A DNA stretch of 14,450 nucleotides from an uncultured archaeon (GCA_964510585.1 CAZECW010000084.1:1-14450); one strand, 5' to 3'; counted from the first letter of the stretch, positions 6,052 to 10,524 are shown. Made by a program: numbers and translations. The notes: generated by a model from the sequence alone, not told the origin.

Positions 6052-6225
6052 ATGAAAGGCAAATGTCCAGAATGCTTCTTTGAGTTTGATGTGGAAGACA
6101 ATGTTATGATAGGTGAAATAGTGGAGTGCCCCGACTGTGCAGTTCAATTGGAAGTGCTTGAGAAGAACAATGGTGGTGTAGTTTTCGAGCCTGCACAGTT
6201 AGAAGAAGAAGATTGGGGCGAGTGA
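6052..6225 (+). CDS. lysW: Amino-group carrier protein LysW (57 aa)
   Basis: MKGKCPEC...VECPDC zinc-ribbon, acidic composition, C-terminal EDWGE; GGAGGT RBS at 6038-6043. The ORF-track start at 5980 is probably an over-extension. Confidence 0.97.
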   Translation: MKGKCPECFFEFDVEDNVMIGEIVECPDCAVQLEVLEKNNGGVVFEPAQLEEEDWGE

Positions 6226-6233
6226 CCATATCG

Positions 6234-7076
6234 ATGAACATAGGACTGATTTACAACCAGATATCATGGGAAGAAAAGACAATCATTGAAGAGGCAAAAA
6301 AACAGGGTTTGGAAATAAAACCTTTAGACTGCAGAAAGATGAGTCTAAAAATACAAGACAACCACGTCTTTTCAGACATCGACCTTTTTCTTGAAAGATC
6401 TTTAAGCTATACAAAGGGACTTTACTCCACAATGGTTCTTGAATCTCAGGGCTTTAAGGTCATAAATTCAGCTGAGTGCCAAGAAATATGCGGCAATAAA
6501 CTAAAAACCTCTGCTACCCTGCATAGATCGGGAATACCGCAACCCAAAACCTACGTTGCCTTCTCATACGAATCAGCCCTCAAAGCCCTAGAAGAACTGG
6601 GGTACCCTGCTATTATTAAACCTTTAATAGGAAGCTGGGGGAGACTAGTAGCAATTTTAAAAGATGAACAGTCAGCAAAAGCCATAATAGAGTCTCGAGA
6701 AGTTCTGGGTTCTGTTTTCCACAAGGTTTACTACTTGCAGGAATTCATCAAAAGCGGAAGAGACATCAGAGCCTTCGTGGTGGGCGAATCAGTAGTTGCA
6801 GCCATGTATCGCTATCTGATTCCAGGAGACTGGAGAAGCAACGCAACCATAGGTGCCAAAGCAGAGGCATGCAAGGTTACACCAGAAATTGAAGACCTAG
6901 CCCTTAAAACAACCACCGCAACCAAAGGCGAAATAGTAGGAGTTGACATGTTCGAAAGTGAAAATCAGCTCCTAGTGAACGAAGTAAACCACGCCCCCGG
7001 ATTTAGACACATAACGCTGGCCACGGGGGTAAACGTGGCCGAGAAAATTATAAACTATTTACGCAGGTGCAAATAA
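6234..7076 (+). CDS. argX: ATP-grasp (RimK-family) LysW ligase, ArgX/LysX; glutamate-accepting (ArgX-like) suggested
   Basis: CGNK, IIKPLIGSWGRLVA, QEF..GRDIR, WRSN, NEVN motifs; adjacent to lysW. WRSN resembles ArgX rather than the LysX WITN. Start is ATG 6234 or GTG 6222 (overlapping the lysW stop). Confidence 0.9.
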   Translation: MNIGLIYNQISWEEKTIIEEAKKQGLEIKPLDCRKMSLKIQDNHVFSDIDLFLERSLSYTKGLYSTMVLESQGFKVINSAECQEICGNKLKTSATLHRSGIPQPKTYVAFSYESALKALEELGYPAIIKPLIGSWGRLVAILKDEQSAKAIIESREVLGSVFHKVYYLQEFIKSGRDIRAFVVGESVVAAMYRYLIPGDWRSNATIGAKAEACKVTPEIEDLALKTTTATKGEIVGVDMFESENQLLVNEVNHAPGFRHITLATGVNVAEKIINYLRRCK

Positions 7077-7112
7077 GGAACAGCACCCAAAAACGCAAAG
7101 GAAAAAATTTGC

Positions 7113-7120
7113 TTATAAAA
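7113..7120 (+). promoter_or_regulatory. Putative internal TATA box (TTATAAAA) for lysZ-lysK
   Basis: Good archaeal TATA match in the argX-lysZ gap, 32-50 nt before candidate starts. Confidence 0.45.
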
Positions 7121-7974: not shown

Positions 7975-9059
7975 ACCCCATAGAATACCTTTTGGAGATG
8001 CTGGAAATTCCTAGCGTCTCTGGAAAGGAGCACAGGTTTTCTGTTTTTTTGATGGAGAGCCTCAAAAATATGGGCTACGAAGTTAAACAGGACAGTGTGG
8101 GAAACGTGCTTGGTAAAATAGGCGAAGGAAAACCCACACTTCTCTTTTCTTCTCACATTGACACTGTTCCAGGAGAGATTCCAGTTAGGGAGGAAAACGG
8201 GAGAATTTATGGCAGAGGGGCTGTTGATGCTAAAGCTTCCGTGGCCTCTATGATACTTGCAGGCTCCATAGTTCCAGATCTGAATTTGGATGGTACACTA
8301 GTATTTGCAGGTGTTGTGGAGGAGGAATCCAGCTTGAGGGGAATCCAGAGTTTATTGGAGGGAGACCTTAAAGCTGATTATGCAATATTTGGTGAGCCGA
8401 CTAAAAATGATAGAATATGTTTGGCATCTAAGGGTAGACTACTATTCAAAATAAATTTGAAAACTAGAGGCGGACATGTAGCCTGCTCTTGGGTTTATAA
8501 AAACTCTATAGAGCTTGCATATGACCTTTGGAAAAAAATCAAGGAGAGTGTGGAAACTAAAGAAAAGTCACCCTTCTTCTCCACGATTCCTAATCTTACA
8601 CAAATAGTGGGTGGCGTAGCCCCTAACGTTATTCCCAGCGAGTGCCAATTATTTATAGATGTCCGTTTCCCTTACCTCGTTAAATCCGCGAAGCTTTTGG
8701 GAACAGTTGAAAAAATCTTTAAAGAATTTAGAGAAATAAACGGGGTTCAAATAAGTTATGATGTTTTGAGCCAAATAGAAGGATTTAGAGCGAATAAGGA
8801 CTCCACGCCAGTGAAGGAATTAGCCAAAGCAATTATAGATGTTAAACACAGAGAGCCACGTTACATAAGAAAAACAGGCACCTGCTTCATGAATCTAATT
8901 GGGCGATGGTACAACATACCAACAGTAAGCTACGGGCCAGGAGACCCAGCACTGGAACACACAGACGAGGAGAACATAGAAAAGGGAGAATTCTTGGAAT
9001 CAATAGAAATCCTTGAAAAAACAATTAGAAACGTTTTTTGCCAAAAAAGAGAGTCCTAG
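7968..9059 (+). CDS. lysK: M20-family [LysW]-lysine/[LysW]-ornithine hydrolase (LysK/ArgE-like)
   Basis: SHIDTVPG, GRGAVDAK, VEEE, GEP, YGPGD..LEHT..E metallopeptidase motifs; overlaps the lysZ stop by 7 nt. Confidence 0.92.
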   Translation: MVDPIEYLLEMLEIPSVSGKEHRFSVFLMESLKNMGYEVKQDSVGNVLGKIGEGKPTLLFSSHIDTVPGEIPVREENGRIYGRGAVDAKASVASMILAGSIVPDLNLDGTLVFAGVVEEESSLRGIQSLLEGDLKADYAIFGEPTKNDRICLASKGRLLFKINLKTRGGHVACSWVYKNSIELAYDLWKKIKESVETKEKSPFFSTIPNLTQIVGGVAPNVIPSECQLFIDVRFPYLVKSAKLLGTVEKIFKEFREINGVQISYDVLSQIEGFRANKDSTPVKELAKAIIDVKHREPRYIRKTGTCFMNLIGRWYNIPTVSYGPGDPALEHTDEENIEKGEFLESIEILEKTIRNVFCQKRES

Positions 9060-9523
9060 ATGCAAACATCGACCACTCTGCCCTTTGTAACTTTAATTAA
9101 AACTTTTGGGTCTATCACCAGAAGTGATTCATCTGACCCGCCACTAGCATAGACTTTTTCATGTTTTAGAAGCCCCTGATCAATAAAAGTCGTTAACTCA
9201 CTCAGATGACCAAAGGGAGGGACGCCCCCCATCGAGAATCCAGTAACTTCCTCAATAAATTCCGCGTCAGCAAAACTAACCTTTTTTGAAGAAGTTATCT
9301 CCGCTAACTTTTTTCTGTCAACCTTCTTGTCACCGGGTGCTATAACTAGAAATGGCTTCTTGTTCTCATTTACTAGCAGTAGAGACTTTGCAATCTGAGA
9401 TGTGCTTATGCCTAGGGCTACTGCTGCTTGTTCTGAGGTAGCAGTTTTTACACTTAGTTCAATTATTTCGGCAGATATATTTTGATGTTCCAAAAATTTT
9501 TTGATCCTCTCAACCCCTGACAT
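9056..9523 (-). CDS. ybaK: YbaK/EbsC-family aminoacyl-tRNA deacylase (trans-editing domain)
   Basis: TATSEQAA..LG....QIAKSLL, GDKKVD, TGFSMGGVPPFG, VYASGG; 155 aa. Confidence 0.9.
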   Translation of the reverse strand: MSGVERIKKFLEHQNISAEIIELSVKTATSEQAAVALGISTSQIAKSLLLVNENKKPFLVIAPGDKKVDRKKLAEITSSKKVSFADAEFIEEVTGFSMGGVPPFGHLSELTTFIDQGLLKHEKVYASGGSDESLLVIDPKVLIKVTKGRVVDVCI

Positions 9524-9534
9524 AGGAATCAGCT

Positions 9535-10524
9535 CTACATCACAAGTGAAAGGATAGCCTTCTGAACGTGCAGCCTGTTTTCAGCTTCATCGTAAATTAC
9601 GGAGTGCGGCCCGTCAACCACACCGTCTGTGGCCTCAACATTTCTCCTTATGGGCAGACAGTGCATGAAAATCGAATTTTTATTGGTAAGTTCCATCAAG
9701 TCTTCGTTGCAAATCCAATTTCGAAAATTCACCCTGAGTTCTTTTTCTTCCTCGGGCTTCCCATAGTACTTGAGGGATCCCCATGCTTTCACGTACACAA
9801 TATCAGCGTCGCGATACGCTTCCTCCATGTTATGTGAAACCTCCAAATTGCAGCCGTTCGCCTCACAATTGCTTCTAGCCCAACTCATTATCTGTTCATC
9901 CAACTCAAAGCCCTCTGGATGCAGTAGGGTAACATCCAAACCGAACCTCGTCGCTATAAGAAGCGCAGAGTTGGGAACACTTACTGGCAAGGGTCTAGGG
10001 TGGTAAGCCCAACTCAAAACAAACTTTTTACCCCTCAGATTCCCCATCTTCTCCTTAATGGTTAGTATGTCAGCTAGAGCTTGGCAAGGATGAAAGAGGT
10101 CGCACTCCATATTAATTACGGGTATGTCTGCCCATCTTGCAAATTCACGTACCACCTCGTTACTCTTCCCATATTGCCAATCTGTGATGTTTGGGAATAT
10201 ACGAATAGAAATAGCATCGCCATACCTTGCCATAACCGAGGCAGTATCCTTTATAGATTCAGAACCCTTGCCAATCCAAGCCTTCTCAGCATCCATATAG
10301 ACCGCGTGGCCGCCTAGCTGAATCATACCAATCTCGAAAGACAGACGGGTGCGCGTGCTGGGATTAAAAAAAAGCATAATAAGTGATTTCCCCTGTAGCG
10401 TCGAAGAGAATTTCTTAGGGTTTTTTTTCATATCACTTGCGAGCTTTAATACAGACTCCAAATCCTCGAAGCTCCATTCCTGAGTGGTTATCAGATCCTT
10501 ACCCTTTAAATCGCTCTGAGACAT
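9535..10524 (-). CDS. argF': N-acyl-ornithine-type carbamoyltransferase (AOTCase/SOTCase, ArgF' family)
   Basis: FFNPSTRTR, HPCQ, WAYHPRPLP, VKAWG, HCLPIRRNV, EAENRLHVQKA; no SMG motif of canonical OTC. ATG 10524 (AGAGGA upstream) is preferred over 10557. Confidence 0.9.
   Translation of the reverse strand: MSQSDLKGKDLITTQEWSFEDLESVLKLASDMKKNPKKFSSTLQGKSLIMLFFNPSTRTRLSFEIGMIQLGGHAVYMDAEKAWIGKGSESIKDTASVMARYGDAISIRIFPNITDWQYGKSNEVVREFARWADIPVINMECDLFHPCQALADILTIKEKMGNLRGKKFVLSWAYHPRPLPVSVPNSALLIATRFGLDVTLLHPEGFELDEQIMSWARSNCEANGCNLEVSHNMEEAYRDADIVYVKAWGSLKYYGKPEEEKELRVNFRNWICNEDLMELTNKNSIFMHCLPIRRNVEATDGVVDGPHSVIYDEAENRLHVQKAILSLVM

Follow-up and report, generated by a model that had tools for sequence, protein, structure and literature searches.

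A window of 14,450 nucleotides, contig C84 (CAZECW010000084.1) of an Asgard metagenome-assembled genome (MAG; GCA_964510585.1), carries an arginine gene cluster built around the carrier protein LysW: lysW, argX, lysZ and lysK lie with argG and argH beside the gene of a transcarbamylase of the N-acyl-ornithine (ArgF') type. We propose that this transcarbamylase may act on ornithine that is still attached to LysW, converting LysW-ornithine to LysW-citrulline, and that LysK would then release citrulline; on the genomic evidence, the probability of this reading is roughly 0.45. It is likely that the enzyme is functionally part of the LysW arginine route, whatever its exact substrate. LysW-ornithine would fit because the enzyme belongs to the acyl-ornithine family, has succinyl-type specificity residues and a shortened specificity loop, and is coupled to a LysW gene module with a dedicated LysK paralogue. 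An original prediction made from the DNA had named this gene set, and every member of it is present.

Active site of the transcarbamylase

The transcarbamylase gene (9535..10524, minus strand) encodes 329 amino acids counted from Met12 of an open reading frame (ORF) that stays open to 10557. Its best family match is the N-acetylornithine carbamoyltransferase model NF003384 (399.8 bits; cut-off 288), which is insufficient alone since it also passes some proteins of another subfamily, type B, with other motifs (315.8 bits in genome G001). The score falls just under the cut-off of TIGR00658, the equivalog model of ornithine transcarbamylase (OTC; 275.7 versus 280.85 bits). The best solved relative is the N-acetylornithine transcarbamylase (AOTCase) of Xanthomonas campestris (HMMER, E = 1e-97). 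The AlphaFold2 model (predicted local distance difference test 94.4) matches AOTCase structures such as 3kzm with Foldseek template modelling scores of 0.89-0.91 at 47-48% identity; OTCs and the N-succinylornithine transcarbamylase (SOTCase) of Bacteroides fragilis rank below AOTCase. On these model-based comparisons the enzyme is a member of the knotted acyl-ornithine (ArgF') family, with a predicted knotted C-terminal domain.

The original prediction listed the motifs FFNPS, WAYHPRPLP, VKAWG and HCLPIRRN and noted the missing SMG motif of OTC. All of this is borne out by the translation, in which the first motif reads FFNPSTRTR and DxxxSMG is absent. The DxxxSMG loop of OTC binds the free alpha-amino acid end of ornithine.

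Residues of the acyl-ornithine family are kept, namely the Lys of VKAWG, the Glu of NME, the Trp of the 80s loop and the HPR...RRN residues. Lys257, Glu151 and Trp94 correspond to K252, E144 and W77 of AOTCase, and W259 is also present; K257, E151, W259 and HCLPIRRN are invariant or nearly so across the alignment of the clade. The carbamoyl-phosphate motif is STRTR, which is OTC-like. The enzyme has the extended 120s loop of the knotted family, with residues 120-150 ungapped against X. campestris AOTCase. It does not have the extended 80s loop, another trait of the family, though the Trp is kept: the loop AW-IGKG-SESIKD (10246..10278, minus strand) lacks 10 residues relative to X. campestris AOTCase, seen as two 5-residue gaps in the HMMER alignment. 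All 49 sampled clade members have a loop shortened by the same 10 residues. Between this Trp and the invariant Glu lie 5 residues in Asgard members of the clade versus about 14-15 in sampled long-loop ArgF' proteins; the clade is referred to here as short-loop.

In solved AOTCase, the 80s loop bears the acyl-specificity residue and a Trp; the AOTCase signature is E92/N185/K302, while that of SOTCase is A/S/P/V/Q, then P, then V/I/E (PMC4581275). In the window enzyme, alignment places Ser99 at the Glu92 position, Pro191 at the Asn185 position and Glu308 at the Lys302 position. Pro191 belongs to the proline-rich (knot) loop HPRPLP (residues 186-191; 9985..10002, minus strand), which is conserved across the short-loop clade, and Glu308 to the motif HCLPIRRNVE (9634..9663, minus strand). 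The triad S99/P191/E308 is of the succinyl type at all three positions, and none of the AOTCase-proper residues Glu92, Asn185 and Lys302 is present. Such a triad would fit an acyl group with a carboxylate, for example a succinyl or gamma-glutamyl end. Chemically, LysW-gamma-ornithine is an N-alpha-acyl-ornithine, and the gamma-glutamyl end of LysW resembles a succinyl group with an extra carbon and a free C-terminal carboxylate.

A LysW docking patch was sought among clade-specific basic residues, of which only R204 and K272 stood out. The predicted complex of transcarbamylase residues 13-340 with LysW residues 25-81, as single chains, had a score of 0.05 and a mark of 0.34, and it weighs neither for nor against binding.

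The LysW arginine operon and its dedicated LysK

On the plus strand, argG, argH, lysW, argX, lysZ and lysK form a tight operon with overlaps of 4-13 nt and gaps of no more than 125 nt. The first gene, argG (3139..4410; argininosuccinate synthase; NF001770 568.5 bits, TIGR00032 536.1 bits), overlaps argH (4407..5927; argininosuccinate lyase; TIGR00838 511.1 bits) by 4 nt. The lysW/argW carrier gene (6052..6225; PF21344 47.3 bits, NF041070 62.2 bits) encodes a zinc ribbon protein of 57 amino acids, counted from the Met at 6052, with the C-terminus EEEDWGE; its orthologues at 10 Asgard loci all end in EDWGE. It is followed by argX (6213..7076), whose product, an ArgX-type RimK/LysX ATP-grasp ligase (TIGR02144 304.9 bits, cut-off 275.6), would load Glu onto LysW. 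The lysZ gene (7153..7974) encodes a [LysW]-glutamate/aminoadipate kinase (NF010659 274.6 bits, cut-off 223; NF010662 255.8 bits). The last gene (7968..9059) encodes the M20 LysW-substrate hydrolase LysK_w (TIGR01902 228 bits, cut-off 163), which is under the equivalog cut-off of NF003367 (250.8 versus 363 bits) and groups with LysK in the tree.

Neither lysY nor lysJ is found in the window. Both are found only on contig C173, in a second, complete lysW-lysX-lysY-lysZ-lysJ-lysK operon, so the window module must borrow both; the window argX is a paralogue of lysX in this operon. The C173 LysW (C173:58001-58174; L012:10002-10175, minus strand) ends in EDWGQ, and its orthologues in G098 and G096 end in EDWGE. 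A terminal Gln is without the gamma-carboxylate used for attachment. The C173 end may be a single-base assembly error, or the window LysW may be the only functional one.

The transcarbamylase gene is convergent with the LysK gene, or no more than 0.5 kb from it, in G000, G094-G101, G103 and G105-G108, from five Asgard families. Several of these loci have it as the last gene of a complete argG-argH-lysW-argX-lysZ-lysK array. In G108, the transcarbamylase and LysK genes are still paired, 220 kb from argH-lysW-argX-lysZ. The LysK_w proteins (13 rows from six families), whose genes lie beside the enzyme gene or within argX-lysZ-lysK clusters, are all to one side of a branch with a Shimodaira-Hasegawa-like approximate likelihood ratio test (SH-aLRT) value of 92. 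Their neighbour in the tree is the lys-operon LysK clade (SH-aLRT 98); the bacterial M20 partners of other transcarbamylase subfamilies are distant. LysK_w is a separate clade of true LysK and is found only in genomes with the short-loop transcarbamylase.

Distribution across Asgard genomes

The scan covered 332 Asgard genomes of at least 80% completeness. In the phylum-wide searches, only six candidates per genome were scored; the LysK cross-tabulation used TIGR01902 at E <= 1e-40 and was later refined. The short-loop enzyme is present in 41 of the 332 genomes, from 8 families. Enzyme and LysK occur together in 36 genomes, the enzyme only in 5, LysK only in 13 and neither in 278. LysK is thus present in 36/41 genomes with the enzyme versus 13/291 without it; the compared genomes are related, and these counts overstate independence. 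Among Asgard archaea, the distribution of the short-loop enzyme follows that of the LysW arginine module.

Of the 13 LysK-only genomes, three are incomplete and come from enzyme-bearing genera; the others belong to lineages f5, f24, f25, f26 and f30, whose LysK scores like the lys-operon type. A match of canonical-OTC strength was found in all 16 of the enzyme-less genomes tested; 14 of these lack LysK and 10 lack ArgC, and two with ArgC have an adjoining ArgJ. Tested lineages that have only lys-operon-type LysK, or ArgJ with ArgC, have canonical OTC and no short-loop enzyme. From this phyletic pattern, canonical OTC occurs in Asgard archaea with or without a de novo route.

Ten of the 41 enzyme-bearing genomes have a single arginine-type transcarbamylase match in the scan. 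Direct searches of five of them (G134, G131, G140, G108 and G127; 92-100% complete) give only two PF00185 matches, the short-loop enzyme and PyrB. Each of the five has LysW, one window-type ArgX, one ArgC/LysY, one LysK and ArgG, and ArgJ was not found in any of them. The ArgB/LysZ-family kinase is single in G134, G131, G127 and G108; G140 has a second (172 bits). ArgX, LysZ and LysK are in one cluster in the Lokiarchaeia-type genomes G134, G131, G140 and G127, and in G108 lysZ follows argH-lysW-argX and lysK is beside the transcarbamylase gene. In these five genomes, nothing else could make citrulline for ArgG.

The short-loop pattern W-x-G-x-x-S-E-[ST] is carried by 49 of the 77 ArgF'-motif sequences collected, and all placeable ones are Asgard. 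The remaining 28 are long-loop and are bacterial or labelled Woesearchaeota; long-loop ArgF' genes are mostly found in classic argG-argC-argD-argF'-argB(-argE-argH) operons without LysW. A quick maximum-likelihood tree with OTC as the root unites the long-loop proteins in one clade (SH-aLRT 99) and places the short-loop proteins on one side of a near-basal branch of the knotted family, with weak support (SH-aLRT 18).

Proposed route

In the proposed route, ArgX would ligate glutamate to the C-terminal Glu of LysW, and the window LysZ followed by LysY and LysJ from C173 would build LysW-gamma-ornithine. The short-loop transcarbamylase would carbamoylate the free delta-amine while the alpha-amine is still on LysW, giving LysW-citrulline; the LysK_w paralogue would release citrulline, and ArgG and ArgH would complete arginine. 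Salvage or catabolism would then be the task of this genome's canonical OTC and carbamate kinase. We infer this assignment of OTC and kinase, along with LysW-ornithine as the substrate and the action of LysK_w on LysW-citrulline. The route would combine the LysW carrier pathway with the acyl-citrulline pathway, a combination well supported by genomics.

The original prediction of carrier-bound transcarbamylation is partly supported. Its core, a place for the enzyme in the LysW arginine route, is favoured by the position of the enzyme as the sole non-PyrB transcarbamylase in several near-complete LysW-only relatives, by its co-occurrence with LysK and by its acyl-ornithine active site; the canonical OTC of its own genome speaks against the prediction. 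The prediction also called for a search for an acetyl route; none was found, and ArgJ is absent from the window's genome. It knew of no described carrier-bound transcarbamylation, and neither this nor LysW-citrulline was found in the literature searched (including a review of the transcarbamylase family, GapMind 2020 and 2026, and work on haloarchaeal ArgW). With odds a little short of even, the enzyme would be the first transcarbamylase to act on a carrier-protein-bound substrate, LysK_w a LysW-citrulline hydrolase, and the whole a further route to arginine.

If the route is correct, LysW is retained through one more step, in the way that acetyl is in Xanthomonas and succinyl is in Bacteroides. 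Arginine biosynthesis would gain a new reaction, the transcarbamylation of a protein-tethered amino acid, and a new variant, found in the archaea most closely related to eukaryotes. The apparent lack of ornithine transcarbamylase in about 10 fairly complete Asgard genomes would be explained, and the automatic name 'N-acetylornithine carbamoyltransferase' would need to be corrected for these proteins. The route would also provide an evolutionary link between the LysW pathway and the bacterial acyl-citrulline pathways, and would bear on an old problem, the divergence of the lysine and arginine pathways and of their protecting groups. Given its near-basal branching in the knotted family, the short-loop clade may resemble the ancestor of the bacterial acetyl- and succinyl-ornithine transcarbamylases, in which the 80s loop would later have been extended over a small acyl group.

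Alternative substrates and functions

Several observations weigh against LysW-ornithine as the substrate. The original prediction had named a canonical OTC elsewhere in the genome as the genomic half of the evidence that would count against it, and such an OTC is present on contig C140 (TIGR00658 444.7 bits, with DVFVSMG and HCLPAHRG). Contamination was considered and rejected, because its neighbours (S19e, eIF6, prefoldin, FtsY, FtsZ, L1 and L10) are ribosomal and cell-division genes in a genuine Asgard context. The classical path, in which LysK frees ornithine for OTC, is therefore available in this genome. It is likewise available in about 31 of the 41 enzyme-bearing genomes, where a second match is read as canonical OTC (confirmed in G000 and five others). 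The same genome encodes PyrB (contig C72) and a carbamate kinase (C146:5546-6469; TIGR00746 416 bits); this kinase could work with canonical OTC to yield ATP from citrulline, or could provide carbamoyl phosphate.

Gene content and context add to these points. The original prediction suggested testing whether the clade goes with lysW, and across the scanned genomes the enzyme does go with LysK; however, two near-complete genomes, G139 and G143 (99% and 98% complete), have no argX-lysZ-lysK cluster and keep the enzyme without ArgX_w and LysK. Both also have ArgC and a second transcarbamylase match read as OTC. In Lokiarchaeia-type genomes, the enzyme gene is not clustered with arg or lys genes. 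Lastly, the clade keeps the OTC-like STRTR, a short 80s loop and D-L-F-HPCQ, and the near-basal position of its weakly supported branch would suit an ornithine-using intermediate form, which the short-loop clade may be.

The main rival to LysW-ornithine is free L-ornithine. LysK_w would free ornithine as in Sulfolobus and Thermococcus, and the short-loop enzyme would be an OTC on a knotted scaffold, either a non-orthologous replacement for canonical OTC or its anabolic partner. We consider this less likely than LysW-ornithine. In its favour, besides the OTC-like features just listed and the near-basal position of the clade, a clade-specific Asp153 stands beside the substrate-binding Glu151, and the OTC of Pyrococcus furiosus is the second-best relative in the PDB (E = 4e-72). 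Adjacency to LysK and the status of sole transcarbamylase fit free ornithine and the carrier-bound substrate equally well, and sequence data alone do not separate the two. However, the loop by which OTC holds free ornithine (DxxxSMG) is absent, and the proline-rich loop, which blocks closure of the 240s loop in solved knotted enzymes (PMC4581275), is present. The acyl-ornithine residues K257, E151, W94, H186 and RRN are all conserved. In addition, about three quarters of the enzyme-bearing genomes keep canonical OTC, which would mean long redundancy if both enzymes had the same activity.

It is improbable that the substrate is instead a small N-acyl-ornithine (N-succinyl-, N-acetyl- or free gamma-glutamyl-), made by an unrecognised acyltransferase or obtained by salvage, with a merely regulatory or syntenic link to LysW. 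The S/P/E triad is exactly of the succinylornithine type, the nearest long-loop relatives are in classic acyl operons, and the persistence of the enzyme in G139 and G143 can be read in the same way. An HDAC-family amidohydrolase gene, two genes away at 7 sampled Lokiarchaeia-type loci, could encode the deacylase, but this synteny is limited to one order and the genes are in separate transcription units. The OTC-less genomes also offer little room for such a pathway, as none separate from the LysW route is visible in them. Each has one ArgC-family reductase and, except for G140, one ArgE/LysK-family hydrolase (E <= 1e-20), which is of the LysK clade. In most of them the sole ArgB/LysZ-family kinase is in an ArgX-containing cluster, while G140 and G129 have a second kinase; ArgJ was not found in the five tested, and most have no second kinase-family match as a candidate ArgA-type fusion.

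A function outside arginine synthesis, such as catabolic carbamoyl transfer to another ureido compound with LysW proximity as inherited synteny, is very improbable: the related types B and C are found in amidohydrolase and nucleoside-transport contexts and the window's genome has a carbamate kinase, but the short-loop clade has the ArgF' motif set (HPxPLP, RRN) rather than the HCLPADRG set of types B and D, ends argG-argH-lysW-argX-lysZ-lysK clusters in several families, and is the only candidate for the step from ornithine to citrulline in genomes with ArgG and a LysW route.

Host genome and neighbouring genes

The MAG is 3.78 Mb in size and 96% complete with 4.8% contamination. The proteins nearest to those of the window carry the labels Freyarchaeota, Jordarchaeum or Jordarchaeales; the best explanation is that the host is a Jordarchaeia-type Asgard archaeon and that the window contains a self-contained arginine module.

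Between lysK and the transcarbamylase gene lies a ybaK-type Cys-tRNA(Pro) deacylase gene (9056..9523, minus strand; PF04073 106 bits); it shares the minus strand with the transcarbamylase gene, and both are convergent with lysK. In G098 (same genus), G096, G095, G107 and G103, lysK and the transcarbamylase gene abut with no ybaK-type gene between them, and the deacylase is probably not part of the arginine system. A SufT-like gene and larC-larB-larE, for synthesis of the nickel-pincer cofactor, come after the transcarbamylase gene (10717-14138, minus strand). This order is kept in both Jordarchaeia families (G098, G096 and G095); of these genomes, G098 alone showed larE. The first 2.6 kb of the window contain two ORFs with weak tetratricopeptide-repeat matches and one ORF without a family match (860-2569, minus strand).

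At Lokiarchaeia-type loci (L054:4799-12610, syntenic in L048-L058), a GFO/MocA oxidoreductase gene and a PDCD5-like gene form a pair on one side of the transcarbamylase gene. Genes for a 184-aa protein of no known function and the HDAC-family amidohydrolase are on the other side, and E1-like (ThiF), E2-like (UQ_con) and JAB genes are nearby.

Other transcarbamylase subfamilies

Relatives outside Asgard archaea, sought by locus search and clade alignment, mostly belong to other subfamilies. None is short-loop and none has LysW nearby, so they do not extend the LysW association. The Nitrososphaeria match P0109 was rejected as a clade member as it is type B, and P0118, labelled Woesearchaeota, as it is an ArgF' of the long-loop kind encoded in an acyl operon. 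The 'Deferrimicrobium' match P0019 was set aside as a non-Asgard member: its contig bears Spt5 and SecE and is probably mis-binned Asgard. Locus L161 (GCA_035531115.1, DATKTP010000241.1), filed under a bacterial 'Deferrimicrobium' MAG, has SecE, Spt5-NGN/KOW, JAB, a short-loop transcarbamylase and RimK-AA_kinase-M20, and has probably been mis-binned from an Asgard genome. At L159:5553-15162, labelled Woesearchaeota, argG, a 346-aa P-loop protein gene (weak MobB/CbiA matches), argC, argD, a long-loop argF', argB, an M20 gene, argH and a second transcarbamylase gene are found. No LysW and no recognisable ArgA or ArgJ was found on this contig.

Further knotted subfamilies are type B (SxSxKP ... 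HCLPADRG) and type C (GALxRS ... HPMPxDRG), often encoded as tandem pairs (L059-L063, L074-L076, L086, L092, L096 and L136; Asgard f3, f11, f14 and f28, Thorarchaeota and several bacteria). Type B proteins that score over the NF003384 cut-off, such as that of G001, are named N-acetylornithine carbamoyltransferase although they have no ArgF' motifs. In type D (AxSYKP ... HCLPADRG/N), Gln replaces both the 80s-loop Trp and the Glu of NME, and the gene is directly downstream of an M20 hydrolase gene. Type D occurs in Chloroflexota, Woeseiaceae, Sumerlaeota and Chitinophagales (L073, L078, L082, L083, L093, L097, L100, L102-L105, L118, L124, L130, L135 and L141).

Comparison with known systems

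The short-loop enzyme shares with X. campestris AOTCase (3KZC, 3KZK, 3KZM and mutants) HPxPLP, the Lys of VKxWG, the Glu of NME, the 80s-loop Trp, HCLPxRRN and the ungapped 120s region. As with ArgF' of Xanthomonas, its gene adjoins an M20 deacylase gene and arg genes. It differs from AOTCase in having S/P/E for E92/N185/K302, an 80s loop 10 residues shorter, and STRTR for SMRTR/SLRTR. Its partners are LysW-type rather than acetyl-type, and no ArgJ/ArgA route is present.

With B. fragilis SOTCase (1JS1, 2FG6, 2FG7), it shares the three-residue signature and has His186 and Arg188 of HPR where SOTCase anchors the succinyl carboxylate. Identity to SOTCase is only about 32%, however, and the SOTCase 80s loop is extended; these Asgard genomes show no genes of an N-succinylglutamate pathway. 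PDB entry 3L05 is, by its title, an E92S mutant of AOTCase with carbamyl phosphate and an N-succinyl ligand, and GapMind 2026, with reference to Shi et al. 2007, states that changing E92 to A, P, S or V switches AOTCase to N-succinylornithine.

Canonical anabolic OTC (P. furiosus 1A1S and the C140 copy of the same genome) resembles the short-loop enzyme in STRTR, HPCQ, HCLP and a short 80s loop, at about 40% identity. In contrast to OTC, the short-loop enzyme has no DxxxSMG and has a proline-rich knot loop; against TIGR00658 it stays below the cut-off that the C140 OTC far exceeds.

The LysW/ArgW systems of Sulfolobus, Thermococcus, Thermus and haloarchaea have in common with the window and C173 genes a LysW ending in EDWGE and homologues of ArgX/LysX, LysZ, LysY, LysJ and LysK; clustering of LysW genes with argG and argH is also seen in haloarchaea (PMC10433800). 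In all LysW systems described so far, free ornithine is set free by LysK or ArgE and is then the substrate of a canonical OTC. The Asgard system differs: its transcarbamylase is of the acyl-ornithine type and has a dedicated LysK paralogue as partner, and some relatives have no canonical OTC.

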